From positions 34,321 to 98,320 of IMG/VR virus record IMGVR_UViG_2788500300_000002: a DNA stretch of 64,000 bases; one strand, written 5' to 3'. Below are positions 1 through 46,465 of this stretch, in pieces (the first letter of the stretch is position 1; every line of letters begins with the position of its first letter). Source of the DNA: a virus. Made by a program: the position numbers and the translations under genes. Under the pieces are notes generated by a model. It saw only the letters and a program-made list of their open reading frames with translations. It was not told the origin of the DNA and did no database searches.

Positions 1-3000
1 CCGTCCCGCGGCTCGATAACGTTCCCTCAGTATCAGGGTGCGCCCATAACTATACATCTTGGGAAGGACGCCGACCGCTCTACTTTCGTGCATGAGTTCG
101 CGCATCTGTATTTCTGGCATCTGCGGAATCTGGCCTCGCTGGACACCGTGCAGAACACAGCGGCATGGGAGGGGCCGGAGGCGGAGTGGAACAGGGATTT
201 GAAGATTGTTTCGCGCTGGTGGGGCGAGAACGCGGAGAATATTGCGCGCCAGGCGGCGCAGTTCGTCGCTGAAGGCGAACGCGGCGGGCTTTCCGCTGAC
301 GGATTCCGAGAGTGGCTTTCTTCCGGTATGGAACGGAGAAGCGCAGCGGGAGCCGCCTACGACCGCGCGGCGCAGGAGTATTTCGCGCGCGGTTTCGAGC
401 GGTATCTCATGGAGGGGAAAACCCCCGCTAATTCCCGCGAGCTGCTTTCCGTGTTCCGGCGTTTTAAGAAGTGGCTCTGCGACATCTACAGGACGCTGAC
501 GGAGCTTGACGTGGAGCTGTCCGACGAGGTGCGCAGCGTGTTCGGCCGCATGGTGGCTGCGGACGAGGCCATAGAACAGCTTCGCGCGGAACGCCAAGTG
601 GACGCGGTCATGGCCGCGCGTCGCGAAGCCGCCGAGGCGGAGGCGCGCGAGACGGACGAGGCGAACTCCGCGTTTGCGCCTGTTCGCGAACCGGAACCGG
701 AATATGATATTGCTTACGACCCATACGAGGACGCTAAGGAAAATCTGCTTGGGCTGCTTTTTTCCGAAGATATGCCGGAGCGCAGGCGCGAGATGGCGGA
801 GCGCGCGGAAGAAATTCGCCCGCAGGTGCTTCAGGCCGTACTTGCCGAGCCCGGGTACAGGGCTTTGGCTATGATGGAACAGGCTCCTGAACTTCGCCTT
901 AATCCGGGCGCCGTCGTGGATATGTTCAGCGAGACGGTGCTTTCGGCTATGCCGGAAGGGAGTATCGCCGATGACGGCATGACTGACATTGAGTTCGCCG
1001 CGCGCAGCCTGAACTTCAAGAGCGCGCATGAGATGATAGACGCGATGGCGGGGCGGCGGACGATAAAGGAAGAGGTCGACGCGAGAGTGCGCGAGATAGT
1101 CGCGCGCGAGTTTACGGACACTTTTTCGTCGCCTGCGGCTATGGACGCCGCGGCGGAGGCCGCGCTTTACGAGAACGATGAGCATGGAGAGAGGCTCGCC
1201 GCGGAAGCGGAGGCGAATTTCGACGACGCGCTCGAGCTTGCCGCGCGCGAGGAGGAGGCAGAAGCCGAGTTCCGCGCTATTTTCGAAGCGGACGAAGCAG
1301 CTAGGGTAGAAAACGAAGACCCCGTCTCGCGTACTAACGTAGTCAGGTGGATGCGCGCGCACGGACGGCCGCGTTATTCGTATGTGGCCCGCGAGATGGG
1401 GCAGGAGGACGCGCAGGCGCTATTGAAGCGTTACGGCCCTTCGTTTTTCTCAAAAGAAGGGCGCGGCCTCAACGACATAGCGCAGGAGCTCGACGGCATG
1501 GGCATCCGCGTCGGTGGAGAGGCGGGGCTTTTCAATCTGCTTATGTCGGAGGCGGTGCCGGAGTCGCCGCTTGACCTTGCACGCGAGGAGGGCCGCCGCG
1601 AGGTGATGGACGAGTACCGCACGAGATACAAGAAACACGTGGCTGGCCAGGAGCGCCGCGCTGCGCGCAACGCCGAAAGGATAAGGCGGATAGAGGCAAA
1701 GGCCGAGGAAAAAACGGGCAAGGCTAAAGCTCGTTACAAAGCCGCCGCGGAACGGCTCAAATCACAGATGAAGGAAAACCATGACAAGGCGGTCGCTCTG
1801 CGCAAGGAAATACGCGCGAGGTATCAGAAGCGAAAGACTGAGCTCGAAGAAAAGTACAAGGCTATGGGCGAACGACGCAGAGCTTCTTTCATCGAGCAGA
1901 AAAACAAAGACTGGACGCGCCGAGCTCTTAACCGTTATCTCAGCGGCTTCAGGACGCATATAGAGAAAAGCGTCAGCAGGAAAGGACTGCACGACGCCGC
2001 TAAGACCGCCGCACGCAATCAGGTCGCAGGGATGACTGTTCAGCAGCTTTACGACGTTACGGGCTGGGTGCGCGTCGAGAAAGATTCCAGAGCCGCGGCG
2101 GACCGTGCGCTTCGTAACTTCGATGAAAAGGCCTTCCGTGAGGCGCGGGAGAAGGAGCTCCATGCGCACGAGATGATTCGCGCGATGTACCGCGCACGCA
2201 GGCGCGCCGAGTATATACGCTCGCGGCTTGTGAAGTATTCGAACCGCAAGCAGAAGCAGACCTTCGGCATGATTCCCGAGTTTCTTTACCAGCTCGATAT
2301 GCTGCTGACGCGGTTCGATTTCACGAAGCGGACGAAGAAAGAGGTCGCGGCGCTTACTCCGAAGGACATCGTCCGGGAGGCGAAGTCTCTTTCTGAATTT
2401 ATAAAGGGGCAGACTGATGCCGGCGTACCGCTTATGATTCCCGACTGGATAGCTCAGAGCGAGTCTCAGATGAAGTACGAAGGGCTTTTCGTACATCAGC
2501 TTGAGAACGCTTTCAACGCCGTCCAGAACATCATGCAGACGGGGCGCGACGAGAAGAAGACTATCGCGCGCGCGAAGAATCTGGAACTTTCGGGAATTGA
2601 GGCGGCGGTGGTCGAGCGGGCGCAGGGGTATTTCGGCAAGGATAAGGTCGACGGCGACACTCATATCAAAGTCGCGCGCAAGGATCCGAACGTAGCCGCG
2701 GATGTGCTGCTTGATTTGAATACCATCGAGGCTATGTGCCGCGGGCTGGACGGCTTCCAGGACGACGGGCCGATGCAGGATTTCTTTTTCCGTCCCGTGC
2801 GCGAGGCTGTGAGTCGCGAATATGCGGAGCTGAATCGTATGTTCGGCGAGTTCCGAAGCCTCAAGCTGCGCGTTTACGGCAAGGACTTCAAGGCCGATAT
2901 GACGCCGAAGGATATAGGCATTCACGAGTATAAGCGCGAGACCGACCGCGAGACGGGGAAGGTTTATCACGTTCCAACGAAGGAAAAGAGCTTTTTCACA

Positions 3001-4719
3001 CAGGAGAATATCATCTGCGCGGCGCTCAATATGGGCAACGCGGACAACCTGGCGCGCCTCAAGGACGGCTGGGGCTGGACGGACGCGGATATAGAAAAGA
3101 TAAAAGAGCAGATGTCGCAGAAAGACTGGGAATATGTGCAGGGCGTCTGGGACTTGCTCGATACGATGTGGCCGAAGATTAAGAAGGTTCACGAGCTTAT
3201 GACCGGTATGACTATCGAGAAGGTCGAGGCTAAGCCGGTCGTCACTAAGTATGGTACCTTCAGAGGCGGGTATTATCCCATCGTCACGGACCTGCGCTAT
3301 TCGGAGACGGCGGCGGCGCAGAATGAGCGCGAGGAGGTCTTTGCTTCCGCGCCTTTGAATTTTGCCTCGAAGCATACGAAAAGCGGACACAGAAAGGCTA
3401 GAGCGGAGAATGTGCTTGGGCGACCGCCGCTGCTTTCGTTTTCGGTGCTGGACAACCATGTCGCCAACGTAATCCACGACTATGAGATGGCTTCGGTGCT
3501 GCGCGACGCCGGGAAGATCCTGCGGCTGGATAAGGTGAAGAGCGTCATTACGGCGGTCTACGGCGACAGGGGGTACAGGAATTTCAGGAAGTGGCTGAAC
3601 GACATAGCGGCGAATACGAAGAATAACGGCGTCGCTTCCGGCTCCGGGGACAGGATAGTCAACGGGATAAAGAGCAAGACGGCGATGTTCGCGCTGGGCG
3701 GCAACCTGGGCGGCGCTGTTTCGCAGCTTCTCGGGTATTTCCCGCTGGCGCACCGTATCGGCTTTGTTAATACGGCGCTCGCCATACTCGACGGGCTGAA
3801 CCCGGGCAGCAGGACTTACGACTTCGTGCGCGAGAAGTCCGCTTTTATGCGCGAGCAGATGGACGACGGCAACTCTGAAGTCCGTAAGCTGCGGCAGAAC
3901 TGGACGACTAACGACCACGGGATTTCCCGAGCGGCGGATATGTTCCTTTCAATATATCCGTTCTTCCAGAATATGTGCAATGTACCGGGATGGGCTCAGT
4001 GTTACAAGATAGGTCTGAAACGCTACCGCAGCGAGGCGAAGGCGGTCGCCTACGCGGATTCCGTGATACGGCAGACGCAGAGCGCTTCCACTATCGCGGA
4101 CCTGACTTCCTTCGAGCGCTCGGGGACTATTGGGCAGCTGACGACGATGTTTTATTCGTGGTTCCGCGTCATGTATCAGATGCAGAACGAGGCCGTCATG
4201 CGCGTGAAGTATGAGCACGGGATAAACCGCGTTAAGGACTTGGCGAGCTACGCCTTTTATATCCTTATCGCGCAGAGCGTTGCGGAGGCGCTGCTTCGCG
4301 GGAACGGCCCGGAGCCGGAGGATGGCGAGGACCCCATGTGGAGCTGGGCGAAGTGGACGACGGCTAGGGTATTGCTTTCGCCGCTTTCTACGGTTCCCTT
4401 CGCGAGGGAGTTTGGAAGCGCGATAGACAATAATTTCAAATTCGGCGTACAGCTCACTCCGGCGCAGGGCGGTCTCGACGCTTTGGCACGGCTGCTTAAG
4501 ATAGCGATGCGCCAAGGCGGTAACGCGCTTAGCGGCGAGGATATCGAATGGGGCGACGTGGCGGAAGGCGCGGCGACTGTCGCTGGCTACCGTTACGGCG
4601 TGCCGAACCGCAAGATGATCCAGGCGGCGAAGGCATTCTGGGCGTATTACGATGAGGAAGAGGCTATCCCGTGGGCCTATCTGATTTTAGGCGGCGGGTA
4701 TAAGCCGAAGGACGAATAG
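1..4719 (+). CDS. Giant phage virion/DNA-ejection-type protein (polyvalent-protein-like), 5'-truncated by the window edge
   Basis: Frame is open from base 1 (PSRGSITF...ADRSTFVHEFAH). HExxH motif, long coiled-coil middle, located just upstream of the tail fibres. Confidence 0.65.
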   Translation, partial: PSRGSITFPQYQGAPITIHLGKDADRSTFVHEFAHLYFWHLRNLASLDTVQNTAAWEGPEAEWNRDLKIVSRWWGENAENIARQAAQFVAEGERGGLSADGFREWLSSGMERRSAAGAAYDRAAQEYFARGFERYLMEGKTPANSRELLSVFRRFKKWLCDIYRTLTELDVELSDEVRSVFGRMVAADEAIEQLRAERQVDAVMAARREAAEAEARETDEANSAFAPVREPEPEYDIAYDPYEDAKENLLGLLFSEDMPERRREMAERAEEIRPQVLQAVLAEPGYRALAMMEQAPELRLNPGAVVDMFSETVLSAMPEGSIADDGMTDIEFAARSLNFKSAHEMIDAMAGRRTIKEEVDARVREIVAREFTDTFSSPAAMDAAAEAALYENDEHGERLAAEAEANFDDALELAAREEEAEAEFRAIFEADEAARVENEDPVSRTNVVRWMRAHGRPRYSYVAREMGQEDAQALLKRYGPSFFSKEGRGLNDIAQELDGMGIRVGGEAGLFNLLMSEAVPESPLDLAREEGRREVMDEYRTRYKKHVAGQERRAARNAERIRRIEAKAEEKTGKAKARYKAAAERLKSQMKENHDKAVALRKEIRARYQKRKTELEEKYKAMGERRRASFIEQKNKDWTRRALNRYLSGFRTHIEKSVSRKGLHDAAKTAARNQVAGMTVQQLYDVTGWVRVEKDSRAAADRALRNFDEKAFREAREKELHAHEMIRAMYRARRRAEYIRSRLVKYSNRKQKQTFGMIPEFLYQLDMLLTRFDFTKRTKKEVAALTPKDIVREAKSLSEFIKGQTDAGVPLMIPDWIAQSESQMKYEGLFVHQLENAFNAVQNIMQTGRDEKKTIARAKNLELSGIEAAVVERAQGYFGKDKVDGDTHIKVARKDPNVAADVLLDLNTIEAMCRGLDGFQDDGPMQDFFFRPVREAVSREYAELNRMFGEFRSLKLRVYGKDFKADMTPKDIGIHEYKRETDRETGKVYHVPTKEKSFFTQENIICAALNMGNADNLARLKDGWGWTDADIEKIKEQMSQKDWEYVQGVWDLLDTMWPKIKKVHELMTGMTIEKVEAKPVVTKYGTFRGGYYPIVTDLRYSETAAAQNEREEVFASAPLNFASKHTKSGHRKARAENVLGRPPLLSFSVLDNHVANVIHDYEMASVLRDAGKILRLDKVKSVITAVYGDRGYRNFRKWLNDIAANTKNNGVASGSGDRIVNGIKSKTAMFALGGNLGGAVSQLLGYFPLAHRIGFVNTALAILDGLNPGSRTYDFVREKSAFMREQMDDGNSEVRKLRQNWTTNDHGISRAADMFLSIYPFFQNMCNVPGWAQCYKIGLKRYRSEAKAVAYADSVIRQTQSASTIADLTSFERSGTIGQLTTMFYSWFRVMYQMQNEAVMRVKYEHGINRVKDLASYAFYILIAQSVAEALLRGNGPEPEDGEDPMWSWAKWTTARVLLSPLSTVPFAREFGSAIDNNFKFGVQLTPAQGGLDALARLLKIAMRQGGNALSGEDIEWGDVAEGAATVAGYRYGVPNRKMIQAAKAFWAYYDEEEAIPWAYLILGGGYKPKDE

Positions 4720-33786: not shown

Positions 33787-34362
33787 GAATTACATACACC
33801 TATTGGGACGCAAACGGGCGCGAGTACTTCGTCCAGCGCGCGCCCGTCAGTGGATATGGCGTCTACTCCGCTATCGGACGGCGGACGCCTAAGCCGGAGG
33901 TGACGGAGACTTTCGACACGGCAGAAGAAGCACAGGCGCGGCTCGACCAGCTCGCGATGGAGCTAAAACTATGCGCTGCGTAGAGTGCCGGTACTTTCAC
34001 CGTCTCGACCTGCACACGTCGCCCGCGCGCGTCGTATGTGCTAAAAGCGTTTTAGTCGGCAACGATGTAGACGTGCGGCGCGGTTGCGGGATTGGAAAAC
34101 TTAAGTCAAGGGGTGCTGCGGTCTGGAAGCCGGGCGGCGGCACGTCGTGGAACAGAGCATAAGGAGGAATCATGATGTTAGAAATTACGCCGGAACTAAT
34201 AGAAGTTGTAAATAGCACAACTCTTAGGTTGAGAAAGGCCATTCGCTTAGATAAAGAGCTTTTAACGAAGGAAGAATATGAAGAGTACGCCCCAATTTTA
34301 ATAGAGCTTGTCGATGTGCTTGTACTTTGTTCGATGGCCAAATTTGTCCGCGGAGAAACAAA

Positions 34363-41489: not shown

Positions 41490-43115
41490 ATGAGCCGAAA
41501 ACAACGAAAACCAAAGGCGGCATACCGAACGCCGTCGATGAAGATAGCCGCGGAGGCTTTGTCGTCTCGCGGCGCGGGCGCGGGCGTTCTCACCCCCGGC
41601 GCAATCCGCGCCATGTTTCAGCCGTGCGAGACGCTGGGCTTCCGCGGTGCCGATAACGCCAGGATTGCGCAGGGCGCGGCGCTCGACTCCGCAGGCGTGT
41701 ACAACCTTTTGCAACACACGCTCTGCAACGGGATGCTCGCCTACGCGTCGCAGTTTGTGGGCTACGGCGTGCTGTCCAATCTCACGCAGGACGGGCTTAT
41801 CCGCTCCGGCGTCGAGATGCGTGCCGACGAAATGACGCGCAAGTGGATAGAGCTGACGTACAACGGCAAAGACCCGGCGGCGCAGAAAGAGCAGGAGCAG
41901 GAAATAGACGGCGGGCTTAACGGCTCGCCTTTTTTGTCGGGCGGCGTTGTCCCGGTAACGCCGGAGGCAGAGGGCGACAGCATTATCCAGACGCTCAACG
42001 GCGAGATGGAGGCGTTCGGGCTGAGGCGGCTGTTCCGCGAGGCCGCCGCGATGAGCGGCTACTTCGGCGGCTGTCTGGCTTACATTGACGTGGGCGACCT
42101 GACCGACGAAGACCTCAAAACCCCGCTGCGTCTTGACGCCGACACGTTCTCGCAGGGCTCGCTGCGCGGCTTCCGTCTCGTCGAGCCGTTCAACATCGCG
42201 CCTGGCTTCTACAACGCGAGCAACCCGGTCTCTGCGAGTTACTTCCGGCCTGAGACGTGGTACGTGCTTGGCACGGAGATACACGCCTCGCGCTTCCTGT
42301 ATTTCACCGAGAACCGCCCGCCGACGCTGCTGCTCCCGTCGTACAACTTCTTCGGCATCCCACTGGCGCAGATTGTGCTCGACGCGGTCACGCACTTCAC
42401 GAGCTGCCGCGAGGCAGAAGCGAGGCTGCTTACCAAGTTCAGCCTGACCGTCCTCAAGACGGATATGCAGGCGGTGCTTGCAGGCGGCGCGAGCGGAGAG
42501 ATTGACAAGCGCATAAGGTACTTCGTCCAGATGTGCGATAACGACGGCGTGGCGCTCATAGACAAGGACATGGAAGACATGATAAAGCTCGAAACTCCGC
42601 TCTCGGGCGTTACAGACATCGTGCGGCAGGCGATGGAGATAGTCGCGGCGATGTTCGGAGAGCCGGTCGTCAAGCTCTGGGGCGTCACCCCCGGTGGGCT
42701 AAACGCCACAGGCGACGCGGATATGCAGAACCATTACGACCATATCAACAGCATACAGGAGAAGATATTCCGTGAGCCGCTGAAACACGCGCTGGACATC
42801 TTACAGCTCAACAAGTTCGGCGTTATCGACGACGCTCTGACCTTCACCTTCCCGCCGCTCGGGGACGACGACGACAAGGCTGTAGCGGACACGCAGCTCG
42901 TCAAGGCCAACACTGCGGCGACGCTCTTCGACCGCGGCATCGTGAGCGGCGAGGAAGTACGCAAGGCGCTCGCGGAAGACCCGAAGAGCCAGTTTACAAA
43001 CATAGACCCGGGCGCGGAAGTGCCGGAGCCAGACCTCGCGCTCCCGATGGAGGGCGCGCAGGAGCCCGGGCGCTCAGACCTTGACGACCGCGACTTCGCC
43101 GGACAGGTCTACTAG
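41490..43115 (+). CDS. Portal protein (DUF1073-type)
   Basis: Position after terL; KLWG.TPGGLNATG.ADMQNHYD motif. Confidence 0.85.
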   Translation: MSRKQRKPKAAYRTPSMKIAAEALSSRGAGAGVLTPGAIRAMFQPCETLGFRGADNARIAQGAALDSAGVYNLLQHTLCNGMLAYASQFVGYGVLSNLTQDGLIRSGVEMRADEMTRKWIELTYNGKDPAAQKEQEQEIDGGLNGSPFLSGGVVPVTPEAEGDSIIQTLNGEMEAFGLRRLFREAAAMSGYFGGCLAYIDVGDLTDEDLKTPLRLDADTFSQGSLRGFRLVEPFNIAPGFYNASNPVSASYFRPETWYVLGTEIHASRFLYFTENRPPTLLLPSYNFFGIPLAQIVLDAVTHFTSCREAEARLLTKFSLTVLKTDMQAVLAGGASGEIDKRIRYFVQMCDNDGVALIDKDMEDMIKLETPLSGVTDIVRQAMEIVAAMFGEPVVKLWGVTPGGLNATGDADMQNHYDHINSIQEKIFREPLKHALDILQLNKFGVIDDALTFTFPPLGDDDDKAVADTQLVKANTAATLFDRGIVSGEEVRKALAEDPKSQFTNIDPGAEVPEPDLALPMEGAQEPGRSDLDDRDFAGQVY

Positions 43116-43126
43116 AAGGAGCGGAG

Positions 43127-44884
43127 ATGGCTGTTAAAAGGACGCTGAGGGCGGTACGTCCGGCTGCCGCGCTCGAGCGCGAGTACCGCGAGAAGCTGGA
43201 CAAGCTTATAGACGACATGCAGCGCTCGGTCATCTGGTGGATGCGCGCTGCTTACCGCAGGCGCGAAAACCAGATAACGCAGGACGCGGGCCCGGCGCGC
43301 GACTTGTCGCAGGAGCTGCAGAGCGTCATGCGCGACTGGCTCAAAAAGTACAACGAGGCCGCTGAGACGCTCGCACAGTGGTTCGCGGATAAGAACTCGC
43401 AGCACGTGCGCAACTCCACGCGCGAGGCATTCAAGGCGGCGGGGATAGCCGAGCTGTTCACGGTCAAATTCCGCTACATGAGCCGCCACGAGCGCGACGT
43501 GCTGCAGTCTATCATCATTGAGAACGTCAATCTGATAAAGTCCATACCTCAGCACTATTTTACGGAGGTGCAGGGGCTTGTGCAGCGGTGCGTGCAGAAC
43601 GGGCGAGACCTCGGCTATCTGACGGACGAGCTCGGCAAGCGCTACCAGATAACGCGCCGCCGCGCTGCAATGATAGCGCGCGACCAGACAAACAAGGCGA
43701 CGGAGAACCTGTCCCGCGCGCGTATGCAGAGCCTCGGGATAACGAAAGGCATCTGGATACACACCAGCGCCGGGAAGACGTACCGGCATACGCACGTGGA
43801 GATGAACGGCAAGGAGTTCGACCTCTCCAAAGGCATGTACGACAGCGCGGTGGGGCGCGAGGTGTTCCCGGGGGAGCTGGTGAACTGCTTCCCAGGCAAT
43901 TCAAAGTTGTATGGACTTCCGTTCGTAGAAAAGCTGTACAGGCGTTTTTACAGAGGCGAACTGACCGAGCTCGTTACGATAAACGGTGTAGTCCTTAGAG
44001 TAACACCGAATCATCCAATACTCACTCTTGAAGGGTGGAAGGCTGCCGGCCTCGTTGATTGCGGAGATTATATTTTCCAGATAGGCGCTAAGGACAGATA
44101 CGTCAGAGAACTCAATCGTTATGGGGCTATACCCACATTCGAGAATTTTTTTGAGGCGTTTGTTGGACATGGTGCTTCTGCCTCGATATTTGGTTGTGCC
44201 GAGTGTGACTTCCACGGCGACGTGTCCGATGGCGAAATCGACGTTATAGATGTCAATAGCTTTTTGACGGACAAAACGAAAACCTCTTTGTTCAAGAAAG
44301 GACGCGAGTTCGGTTTCACCAGGTCCGAAGTGAGAGGCATTGCCGGTGTCCTCTCGGGAGGATGCGTAATGACATCGTTGGCTATGGGGCATTTCTCCGC
44401 GACGAGCTTCACGGGCAGCGTGAGTAAGCGCTTGTCTGTATTCCTCGGTAGTCTCACGATAGCGGAGCTTGTTTGCCTCTTTTCCATTTCTCGGGGTAAT
44501 CCCAGCTCGCAGAATGCGACGACGAATGACATTGCGGGAACACCCAAAATGGCGGGCAATTTCCAGCTCGCTTACGCCGGACTTGTACATGGATATGACC
44601 TCATCTTCGGGGACAAGTGTTCTATCATCGGTTCGTCGGTTTCGTGGAATGGTGAATCCACGCTTCCTAACATGAATGGAGAGGTTGTCGGGGCAGACCC
44701 CCAGCTCTTCAGCAACCGTTTTAAGCATCTTACCTTCGGAGAGACGTTTTACCGCGTCGTTGATAAGCGCGTCAGTGAATTTTCTGGGCATGTTTATAAC
44801 CTCCAGACTTCGCTAGGTTGGTATATCGCAGACCATACCGTTGCGCATAATTGCCGTTGTACTTATAAACCTATTATATCATAG
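43127..44884 (+). CDS. MuF-like head morphogenesis protein containing an intein
   Basis: RAAMIARDQT, WIHT, R..H; PGELVN|C...HN|CRC junctions. Confidence 0.88.
   Translation: MAVKRTLRAVRPAAALEREYREKLDKLIDDMQRSVIWWMRAAYRRRENQITQDAGPARDLSQELQSVMRDWLKKYNEAAETLAQWFADKNSQHVRNSTREAFKAAGIAELFTVKFRYMSRHERDVLQSIIIENVNLIKSIPQHYFTEVQGLVQRCVQNGRDLGYLTDELGKRYQITRRRAAMIARDQTNKATENLSRARMQSLGITKGIWIHTSAGKTYRHTHVEMNGKEFDLSKGMYDSAVGREVFPGELVNCFPGNSKLYGLPFVEKLYRRFYRGELTELVTINGVVLRVTPNHPILTLEGWKAAGLVDCGDYIFQIGAKDRYVRELNRYGAIPTFENFFEAFVGHGASASIFGCAECDFHGDVSDGEIDVIDVNSFLTDKTKTSLFKKGREFGFTRSEVRGIAGVLSGGCVMTSLAMGHFSATSFTGSVSKRLSVFLGSLTIAELVCLFSISRGNPSSQNATTNDIAGTPKMAGNFQLAYAGLVHGYDLIFGDKCSIIGSSVSWNGESTLPNMNGEVVGADPQLFSNRFKHLTFGETFYRVVDKRVSEFSGHVYNLQTSLGWYIADHTVAHNCRCTYKPIIS
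43886..44851 (+). mobile_element. Intein (322 aa) inserted in the MuF N-CRC motif
   Basis: Starts CFPG; block B VTPNHPILT; ends HVYNL...AHN before +1 Cys; AT-richer than the flanks. Confidence 0.88.
43901..44791 (-). CDS. Antisense HTH plus DUF559/Vsr-like endonuclease nested in the intein
   Basis: 296-aa ORF; two HTH-like segments; E..L...L..RGF.F.RQ..I..YNVDFA...VAVEV; RBS GGAGGT 7 nt before the ATG. Confidence 0.78.
   Translation of the reverse strand: MPRKFTDALINDAVKRLSEGKMLKTVAEELGVCPDNLSIHVRKRGFTIPRNRRTDDRTLVPEDEVISMYKSGVSELEIARHFGCSRNVIRRRILRAGITPRNGKEANKLRYRETTEEYRQALTHAAREARRGEMPHSQRCHYASSREDTGNASHFGPGETELASFLEQRGFRFVRQKAIDIYNVDFAIGHVAVEVTLGTTKYRGRSTMSNKRLKKILECGYSPITIEFSDVSVLSAYLENIISAINEAGSLPPFKSEYWMIRCYSKDYTVYRNELGQFASVKTPVQLFYERKSIQL
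44873..44881 (-). promoter_or_regulatory. Extended -10 promoter pointing into the intein
   Basis: TGATATAAT on the minus strand about 80 bp upstream of the antisense ATG. Confidence 0.6.
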
Positions 44885-44932: not shown

Positions 44933-46465
44933 ATGATACGGGACAGACCCCGCAGCGACCGCATTGCGTTCGACGCCGCGGCTAGCCGCCGTCATAAGGA
45001 CGACAACGGCTATCTGCACGTGGACGCGTCGAACATCACCAAGGAGCAGGTCGCGCCGTACTACGGCAATGAAATCCCCGACTGGCAGGGGCTGGGGCTC
45101 GAGCCTGGACGGCTCTACTACATGTACCGCCCCGCGGACGAGCTGGCGAAGGCTGCGGACAGCTTTAACGGGATGCCGCTGCTTTTCGAGCATCATCAGA
45201 CTAACGCCGCGTGCCCCGCTAAGGAGTATGTCATAGGCAGTCTCGGCACCGACGCGGAGTTCCGCTCGCCTTACGTCGTCAACTCACTGATTATCACGGA
45301 CGGCGAGGCGATAGACGCGATAGAGCGTGGGGACTACAAGGAGCTTTCCGCCGCTTATAAGTACACGCCCGTCATGCAGGGCGGCATCTTCGGCGGCGAG
45401 CATTACGACGGACGCATGACGGACATCAGGGCCAATCACGTCGCGCTAGTCAAAGAGGGGCGCGCGGGGCCGGACGTTGCCGTCGCGGACGCGAAACCTA
45501 AATCACTGGGGGCGCTGGCCCCTCAAAGGAGGACGCAAAAAGAGATGAAAAAAACGACCAAGAAGGGCGTGCTTGCCTTCGACGCAGTGCCCGCGATAGA
45601 GGGCATGGAAGTCAATCTCGCCGCAATGATGAAGGCCGTGCAGGTTGTGGAAGCGCAGCGCGAGGGGCTTGACCCGCGCACAATCAACCTCGACATAGAC
45701 GCGGGGGCAAGCATAGACGAGATCGTCGCCAAGTTCTTCCCCGAAGCGGACGAGGACGCGAAGGCCGGGATAGCGGCGATGCTCGAAGAGCTTAAATCCG
45801 CGCCCGCCACGGACACGGACGTTATTACCCCGGCAAAGGACGACGAGAAGGGCAGCCGCGAGTTCGCGGAGGGCGTCAAATACGGTGAAGAGCTTGAACG
45901 CGACCCGGAAGAGCGCCGGAAACTTGACCGCGAACACGAATCCGAAGGGATGCGCCGCGCTATGGACGAATGCGGCGTGGACGCGGACGACCCCGGAAGC
46001 TCCAAGGCCTTCGCTGAGGGCGTTAAGTACGGCGAGAACCTTATGCGCAACCGTGCGGAGCGTGAAAAGCTTGACCGCGAGCACGAGTCGGAAGGAATGA
46101 AGCGCGAACTGGAACACCAGCGCGAGGCGATGGACGCGGCTATCAAGAAAGCTAAAGAACAGGTCGCCGCGGACACGAAAGCCCACATCAAGGCGCTTTA
46201 CGCGGCCGCCAACGACTGCCGCCCAGTGCTCGGGATACTCGCCGACCCGATGGCGTTCGACAGCGCTGACGACATATACCGCAAGGCCCTGACGGCGGCA
46301 GGCGTAGATGTGCGCAACGTCCACCCGTCCGCGTTCCCGCAGATGCTTAAACTCGTGCGCGGCAACAAGAATAGGGCGGCGGGAGCCCCGCAGATGGCTA
46401 ACGACTCCGCGGGCGGCGACTTCCTCAAAGGCGCGTTTGACGGGCTCGCGCGAATCCAGAAGTAA
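44933..46465 (+). CDS. Prohead protease/scaffold (DUF2213-type)
   Basis: DDNGYLHV..SNITKEQVAPY, ELSAAY, NHVALV.EGRAGPDV.V.D. Confidence 0.88.
   Translation: MIRDRPRSDRIAFDAAASRRHKDDNGYLHVDASNITKEQVAPYYGNEIPDWQGLGLEPGRLYYMYRPADELAKAADSFNGMPLLFEHHQTNAACPAKEYVIGSLGTDAEFRSPYVVNSLIITDGEAIDAIERGDYKELSAAYKYTPVMQGGIFGGEHYDGRMTDIRANHVALVKEGRAGPDVAVADAKPKSLGALAPQRRTQKEMKKTTKKGVLAFDAVPAIEGMEVNLAAMMKAVQVVEAQREGLDPRTINLDIDAGASIDEIVAKFFPEADEDAKAGIAAMLEELKSAPATDTDVITPAKDDEKGSREFAEGVKYGEELERDPEERRKLDREHESEGMRRAMDECGVDADDPGSSKAFAEGVKYGENLMRNRAEREKLDREHESEGMKRELEHQREAMDAAIKKAKEQVAADTKAHIKALYAAANDCRPVLGILADPMAFDSADDIYRKALTAAGVDVRNVHPSAFPQMLKLVRGNKNRAAGAPQMANDSAGGDFLKGAFDGLARIQK

Follow-up and report, generated by a model that had tools for sequence, protein, structure and literature searches.

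A MuF intein with a predicted Vsr-like homing endonuclease gene on its opposite strand in a probable Mu-like prophage

The window analyzed here, a 64,000-nucleotide stretch of viral DNA (positions 34,321 to 98,320 of IMG/VR record IMGVR_UViG_2788500300_000002), carries a MuF head morphogenesis gene interrupted by a class-1 intein, and the opposite strand of this intein holds an open reading frame (ORF) of 296 aa, which encodes a protein with helix-turn-helix (HTH) modules and a Vsr-like nuclease domain. Domain matches, a confident structure model and a large set of related loci support the antisense ORF as a real, selected HTH and Vsr-like nuclease gene. The locus is probably a composite selfish element, in which a class-1 intein and an independent antisense homing-endonuclease gene share the same DNA. 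The first-pass annotation of the window, which treated such an arrangement as undescribed, was mistaken on this point. According to a preprint by Gosselin, Arsenault & Gogarten (bioRxiv 10.1101/2025.01.02.630785), anti-sense VSR-like endonucleases lie within full inteins that interrupt minor capsid proteins of actinophages, and antisense LAGLIDADG endonucleases in inteins (Synechocystis DnaX, Chloroflexus SpoVR-like) are traced there to Gorbalenya 1998 and Gogarten 2002. The layout is already described, and the window is a non-actinophage example of it and no new kind of element.

On the sense strand, the 585-aa MuF precursor matches Phage_Mu_F over residues 147-254 (Pfam, 8.5e-7) as well as Intein_splicing. 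The intein begins with a Cys (43886-43888), ends with His-Asn (last nucleotide 44851) and is followed directly by Cys+1 (44852-44854), and the C-extein consists of ten codons only (CRCTYKPIIS). With a TxxH motif in block B and a C-terminal HN, it carries the splicing residues of class-1 inteins, of which C1, T40, H43 and N322 are invariant across 65 homologues. Its sequence profile matches solved inteins (2jmz, Pho RadA and Mtu RecA) in the Hint parts only. In the AlphaFold2 (AF2) model of the intein, the mean pLDDT score (predicted local distance difference test) is 63.4, with about 85-95 in the Hint ends (residues 1-66 and 286-322) and values below 50 for 114 interior residues. No nuclease or other domain, LAGLIDADG included, was found in the sense frame by Pfam, NCBIfam, PDB profiles or the AF2 model; a canonical bifunctional intein with an in-frame LAGLIDADG or HNH endonuclease was therefore rejected, as its interior also has low pLDDT. 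GC content, about 0.62 in the surroundings, drops to 0.45-0.53 across the intein, which is expected of acquired DNA.

The antisense ORF lies wholly within the intein and is codon-aligned with it (relative frame 0), so that some 890 bases code for two proteins. Its product matches HTH_7 (8.4e-6) and DUF559 (2.7e-4) in Pfam, both over the gathering scores, and its AF2 model, built at the same alignment depth as that of the intein (65 rows each), reaches a mean pLDDT of 91.2 and shows, in order, two three-helix HTH modules, a helical linker, an alpha/beta nuclease core and a C-terminal beta-hairpin region. The HTH part has a profile match to 2lvs and resolvase HTH domains, while the top Foldseek match of the nuclease core is 3r3p (I-Bth0305I; probability 1.00, TM score 0.59 normalised by target), and the sequence profile matches the DUF559 protein 3hrl (8.5e-6) as well as 3r3p (3e-5). 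Residues E159, Y182, N183, D185, E194 and R212 show no or almost no variation in the endonuclease alignment. Strict EDxHD membership was rejected because the window protein lacks the motif His (K201) and the last Asp of the motif is not conserved; it is accordingly classed as Vsr/DUF559-like, with a relationship to the EDxHD group. The first-pass annotation had described a 322-aa MuF intein (C...HN|C) with no recognisable nuclease on the sense strand and, codon-aligned inside it, a 296-aa HTH and DUF559/Vsr-like ORF, and these descriptions were borne out by the splicing residues, the domain and profile searches and the predicted folds.

Endonuclease residue h faces intein residue 303-h, so that about 60 codons encode confidently folded protein on both strands. 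In the AF2 models these are intein residues 7-66, including the block B motif TPNHP (44003-44017), against endonuclease residues 237-296, and about 17 further codons are folded on both strands near the end of block F. The endonuclease segment EYWMIRC is the complement of the intein segment TPNHPIL, and over 43907..44023 pLDDT is 92-95 in the endonuclease model and about 90 for the paired intein residues. The antisense ORF is free of TTA, CTA and TCA codons, as noted earlier from the letters alone. The codon-aligned antisense register is the frame in which avoiding these three codons is by itself enough to keep both strands open, and each of them has synonyms. The same anatomy recurs in relatives, where the endonuclease start faces a His codon in 70/70 distinct loci, and in 52 of the 70 this His lies 21 residues from the intein C-terminus, just ahead of block F (VYNL). 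The endonuclease stop faces intein residues 2-22, most commonly residue 6, via sense TCA, TTA or CTA. In every locus the ORF is nested in the intein, with a median coverage of 92%, which confines the gene to the mobile unit and lets it nearly fill that unit. The coordinates in the window are collected in Table 1.

Table 1. Features of the MuF locus and its opposite strand (positions of the window)
Feature	Position	Strand	Basis or remark
MuF / SPP1 gp7-like head morphogenesis gene	43127..44884	+	ORF list; 585-aa precursor, intein included
Class-1 intein, 322 aa	43886..44851	+	Inserted at the conserved MuF motif ..N|CRC
Sense "linker", intein residues ~67-285	44084..44740	+	Stop-free translation of the complement of the endonuclease gene
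Antisense homing-endonuclease gene (predicted), 296 aa	43901..44791	-	Stop codon 43901-43903 pairs with sense Ser6 TCA
Two helix-turn-helix modules, residues 7-43 and 62-95	44507..44773	-	Pfam HTH_Tnp_1, HTH_7; model helices
Vsr/DUF559-like PD-(D/E)xK core, residues 159-249 (E159, D185, E194, R212)	44045..44317	-	DUF559, profiles, Foldseek
C-terminal beta-hairpin region, residues 257-295	43907..44023	-	Opposite N-terminal Hint strands and block B
Start codon and Shine-Dalgarno sequence of the endonuclease	44789..44804	-	In intein block F (H-V-Y-N-L-Q)
Extended -10-like TGATATAAT	44873..44881	-	Last MuF codons (C-extein), 82-90 nt upstream of the ATG

A search for the same layout elsewhere, which the first-pass annotation had suggested, revealed a large family. 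Using tblastn with the antisense protein, 124 GenBank phage records were found, which include Salmonella Jerseyviruses and phages of Gordonia, Pseudomonas, Klebsiella, Vibrio, Acinetobacter, Edwardsiella, Aggregatibacter and E. coli, and the matches listed lie under MuF/head-morphogenesis genes or coding sequences called "hypothetical protein". Pattern scans contributed 11 loci from bacterial genomes or metagenome-assembled genomes and 80 of 289 viral-contig (IMG/VR) matches; the viral-scan pattern mirrors intein block B and is hence biased toward intein copies, while the genome scan used a nuclease-core pattern only. As well, 2109 clusters at E<=1e-30 were counted among 1.84 billion representatives. 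Among the sources of the loci are phages of Proteobacteria, Actinobacteria, Chloroflexi and Bacteroidetes, and identity to the window is higher for the endonuclease (25-52%) than for the intein (19-43%). Every one of the 103 related loci (97, to which the representative-protein search added six) has an opposite strand that stays open along the full length of the match, in an identical, codon-aligned register, and stops in the antisense frame, which would have spoken against the proposed gene, were seen in none of them. The sense ORFs around the 97 loci span 1.2-3.4 kb; those listed have the class-1 boundary C1 ... [H/S]N | C at HPN|CRC, except a few that are cut by contig ends or misaligned, and those whose full sequence was inspected are either MuF-like or fusions of portal and MuF. 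No free-standing endonuclease homologue was found among the 103 loci, to which one scan pattern that favours intein copies contributed.

The codons TTA, CTA and TCA are absent from 79 distinct endonuclease genes, with one exception, L011, whose chosen start apparently overshoots the sense ORF, and they make up a median of 1.8% (maximum 8.8%) in the exteins of the same genes. For the window alone, the probability that both frames are open is about 1e-2, which is no lower because of the GC-rich codon usage of the host. Summed over the 79 distinct homologues, log10 P is about -277, with incomplete independence among these loci; it is their joint retention of two open frames, and not the window itself, that carries the statistical weight. 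Selection on the two strands, another comparison proposed in the first-pass annotation, was examined in pairs whose nucleotide identity is 70-85%. Per site, the antisense frame of the middle region differs by 0.41 at the third codon position, 0.25 at the first and 0.16 at the second, the usual order for coding sequence, whereas in the sense frame the order of positional differences is opposite to the coding expectation, and amino-acid differences amount to 0.31 in the antisense frame versus 0.48 in the sense frame. The Hint-overlapping segments show the same frame order with lower overall divergence, indicating that both frames are constrained there. As judged from these substitution patterns, the antisense frame is more constrained than the sense frame.

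In addition to the conserved layout, the distribution of the intein among close relatives was informative. When 450 Guernseyvirinae records matching the PK1 MuF gene were compared, 58 of them contained at least 80% of the gene. In the allele of Salmonella phage vB_SenS_ER2, exactly 272 intein codons are absent (PPAHPN|CRSTTAP), and the exteins appear near-identical to those of PK1 in the alignment. This presence/absence polymorphism is the expected pattern of homing, and the consistent position of the ORF inside the intein is expected of a co-mobilised gene; both observations agree with the earlier proposal that intein and nuclease form one mobile unit. According to the composite-element reading, the intein would be translated within the MuF precursor and then splice out, restoring the ..N-CRC.. 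motif, and its middle part of about 220 residues would be a tolerated, stop-free read-through of the endonuclease complement. The antisense gene, with its own start and a Shine-Dalgarno (SD) sequence supplied by block F codons and with a probable promoter just upstream of the start, would make a site-specific nuclease related to I-Bth0305I. Intein-less MuF alleles in a co-infecting phage or prophage are the probable target of this nuclease, with cleavage at the site coding for N|CRC, predicted as GAGCTGGTGAAC|TGCCGTTGTACT, whereupon recombinational repair would copy the intein together with the nested endonuclease gene.

The expression signals that this mechanism presupposes were partly recovered. 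As stated in the first-pass annotation, the sense codons CAT GTT TAT AAC CTC C (44789-44804, H-V-Y-N-L) read GGAGGTTATAAACATG on the minus strand and provide a putative SD sequence and start. In 53/73 loci, the endonuclease start is preceded at 5-12 nt by a GGAG-type motif, while -10-like hexamers within -70 to -20 occur in 44/73 loci in the endonuclease orientation versus 10/73 in the reversed one, and TGnTAnnnT is found upstream of the endonuclease 23 times versus nine in reverse orientation. The recurrent -10-like positions in relatives are -34 and -51. In the Aggregatibacter copy, CTTACA-16-TATAAT, preceded by a TG, lies 29 nt ahead of the ATG. The claim that the gene has its own ribosome-binding site and promoter is thereby partly supported, through the SD sequence and the orientation-specific -10-like sites seen in the family, but not for the particular promoter that had been pointed out in the window, as described below.

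Several observations weigh against the composite-element reading. The window protein and its clade carry K201, while a His (usually Trp-His) occupies this position in 30/65 relatives, and without the EDxHD His the chemistry of the window endonuclease may differ or its activity may be weakened. The presence/absence polymorphism could also arise via precise loss. The extended -10-like TGATATAAT of the window sits in extein sequence beyond the mobile unit and off the recurrent positions, and scanning the window for promoter consensus sequences gave no full sigma-70 site. With regard to RNA, none of the runs searched for the window contains it, the sole match being a chicken-gut metagenome run with a 5% share. 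For the Aggregatibacter prophage copy (L007), in which the intein lies at about 2441-3415 and MuF at about 1781-4184 (mapped from L001), three lysogen RNA-seq runs from two studies gave contigs at 2421-2636 and 2789-3471, that is, on the intein, whereas the MuF flanks (1800-2420 and 3472-4184) gave one 60-nt piece only. These are strandless contigs, in which transcript ends and expression level are unreadable and gaps prove nothing, and they lend weak support to a separate transcript over the element. In the same prophage, the region L007:1212-1797 (Aaphi23 ORF43-ORF44), adjoining the MuF end, yielded abundant lysogen RNA contigs at a depth far above the rest of the head module, and may contain a lysogen-expressed moron or a small RNA.

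The most serious alternative holds that the antisense protein is real and selected but no longer homing, having been domesticated, for example as an HTH regulator or as a superinfection-exclusion or prophage defence nuclease, or that its transcript serves mainly to regulate the late MuF mRNA as antisense RNA. The loss of the EDxHD His in the window's clade and the RNA contigs that cover the element in lysogens, cells that seldom offer homing targets, would fit this explanation, and several VSR-like groups look vertically inherited according to Gosselin et al. However, E159, D185, E194 and R212 are retained, the ORF never leaves the intein, its presence is sporadic in close relatives and its GC content is foreign to the host, so that we consider domestication improbable, though worth keeping in mind.

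Two other explanations call one of the strands into question. If the sense frame were no working intein, the insertion would be tolerated unspliced in MuF or the prophage head gene would be dead, and Ward et al. 2004 indeed termed such a MuF intein of M. capsulatus "degenerate". Against this, C1, TxxH, HN and C+1 are intact in the window and invariant or nearly so in the 65 homologues, among them homologues from lytic phages, which depend on MuF, the Hint ends are modelled with confidence and the sense frame is open in every locus, which makes a dead intein very unlikely. Least credible of all is that the antisense ORF is an unexpressed by-product of codon bias or of constraint on the sense strand, as might be thought from the modest chance probability for the window alone and from the near-total lack of annotation of the ORF in public phage records. 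All 103 loci, at 24-52% identity, keep the frame open, its substitutions follow a coding pattern, catalytic-type residues are invariant, and the product combines a pLDDT of 91 with Pfam and PDB homology to nucleases; these comparative data already contradict a by-product.

The composite element, which we prefer, resembles several known systems to different degrees. The actinophage inteins of Gosselin et al. share with it a contiguous intein, a complete antisense VSR-like ORF inside, the link to 3R3P (by HHpred or profile), a sense interior that is unstructured in predicted models, and minor capsid (MuF-like) proteins among the hosts. In contrast to those cases, the window lies in a Mu-like prophage, probably of a non-actinobacterial host, belongs to a large family, and has an ORF that overlaps about 60 codons of the folded N-terminal Hint and starts inside block F. 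The antisense LAGLIDADG inteins likewise carry an opposite-strand endonuclease in a contiguous intein, but differ in nuclease family (LAGLIDADG versus Vsr/PD-(D/E)xK) and in hosts. In the "fractured genes" of Dassa et al. 2009 (PMC2677866), Vsr-like endonuclease genes lie between split-intein halves and were drawn as successive coding regions; the nuclease superfamily, the free-standing type of gene with its own signals at the endonuclease site of the intein, and the phage and metagenome contexts are shared, whereas the endonuclease there is on the same strand, the host gene forms two ORFs and splicing occurs in trans, unlike the antisense gene and single ORF of the window. A split intein or fractured gene was rejected here on the grounds of one 585-aa ORF and a single open frame in 103/103 loci. 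I-Bth0305I, characterised by Taylor et al. 2011 (PMC3239194) as the prototype of EDxHD homing endonucleases, is the best fold and profile match and likewise places DNA-binding modules at the N-terminus ahead of a Vsr-like catalytic domain at the C-terminus; however, its gene lies in a group I intron and its modules are NUMOD-like, while the window protein has resolvase-type HTH modules and K201. Ward et al. 2004 had reported a MuF intein of the same kind in a Mu-like prophage of M. capsulatus Bath, without a recognisable endonuclease, and doubted its mobility. The Mu-like head module of the window and an IF-2-intein similarity recall this element, in resemblance only.

Our results extend the published description in breadth beyond actinophages, in the overlap with folded splicing segments, in expression signals placed in blocks F/G and in a hint of intein-restricted RNA in lysogens. 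A more ambitious reading, which we regard as less likely than not, would see in the element a two-strand double coding of folded protein over about 75 codons (a Hint segment on one strand, a nuclease or beta-hairpin segment on the other) and more than an endonuclease gene housed in a dispensable intein loop, with start, SD and -10 written into the codons of blocks F/G, making the nuclease independent of late transcription, even in lysogens, with a transcript that might damp MuF; it would also rank the family among the largest natural families of long antisense overlapping phage genes, reaching beyond actinophage cases that were reported as rare. Gosselin et al. propose that a free-standing endonuclease gene invades the intein, and the present element supports this model, in which inteins gain nucleases when free-standing homing endonuclease genes invade. 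Moreover, hundreds of loci at 24-90% identity provide a natural data set for long antisense overlapping genes and the constraint of dual coding.

The antisense endonuclease is unannotated in nearly all public phage annotations examined (Aaphi23, a Vibrio phage, Snoke and most Jerseyvirus records), and because of this missing annotation the inteins of this MuF family have been taken to lack an endonuclease. Recognition of the antisense gene explains how such inteins could still be mobile. Dual coding also misleads automatic annotation in the opposite direction in contigs of the L102 type: at L102:2363-4192, between scaffold and portal genes, the gene caller gave, instead of MuF, the antisense endonuclease and a 190-aa ORF as two genes on the plus strand.

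As to the genomic context, MuF is flanked in the window by a portal-like ORF at 41490-43115 and by the following head-module ORF at 44933-46465. The flanking 541-aa portal-like and 510-aa acidic, repeat-containing proteins resemble, together with MuF, a Mu-like head module, and the locus is probably a Mu-like prophage in a GC-rich bacterium that is not an actinobacterium.

Finally, we also identified variants with longer overlaps. In L097-L101, the endonucleases have extra N-terminal HTH repeats (421-446 aa), and both frames are open over 1266-1341 nt. One of these contigs, L097, carries a second intein at 1395-2627 (+) in its minus-strand MuF ORF (3-2948), at the site ..RTC|FPAG...VVHN|CAAC. 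This intein contains a codon-aligned antisense ORF of 410 aa with about seven CxxC zinc-ribbon repeats and an EDxHD-type nuclease at the C-terminus (PVDF...ALEVDEPYWH), and together with the first antisense ORF (99-1364) it makes about 2.5 kb of the 2.9-kb contig dual-coding.

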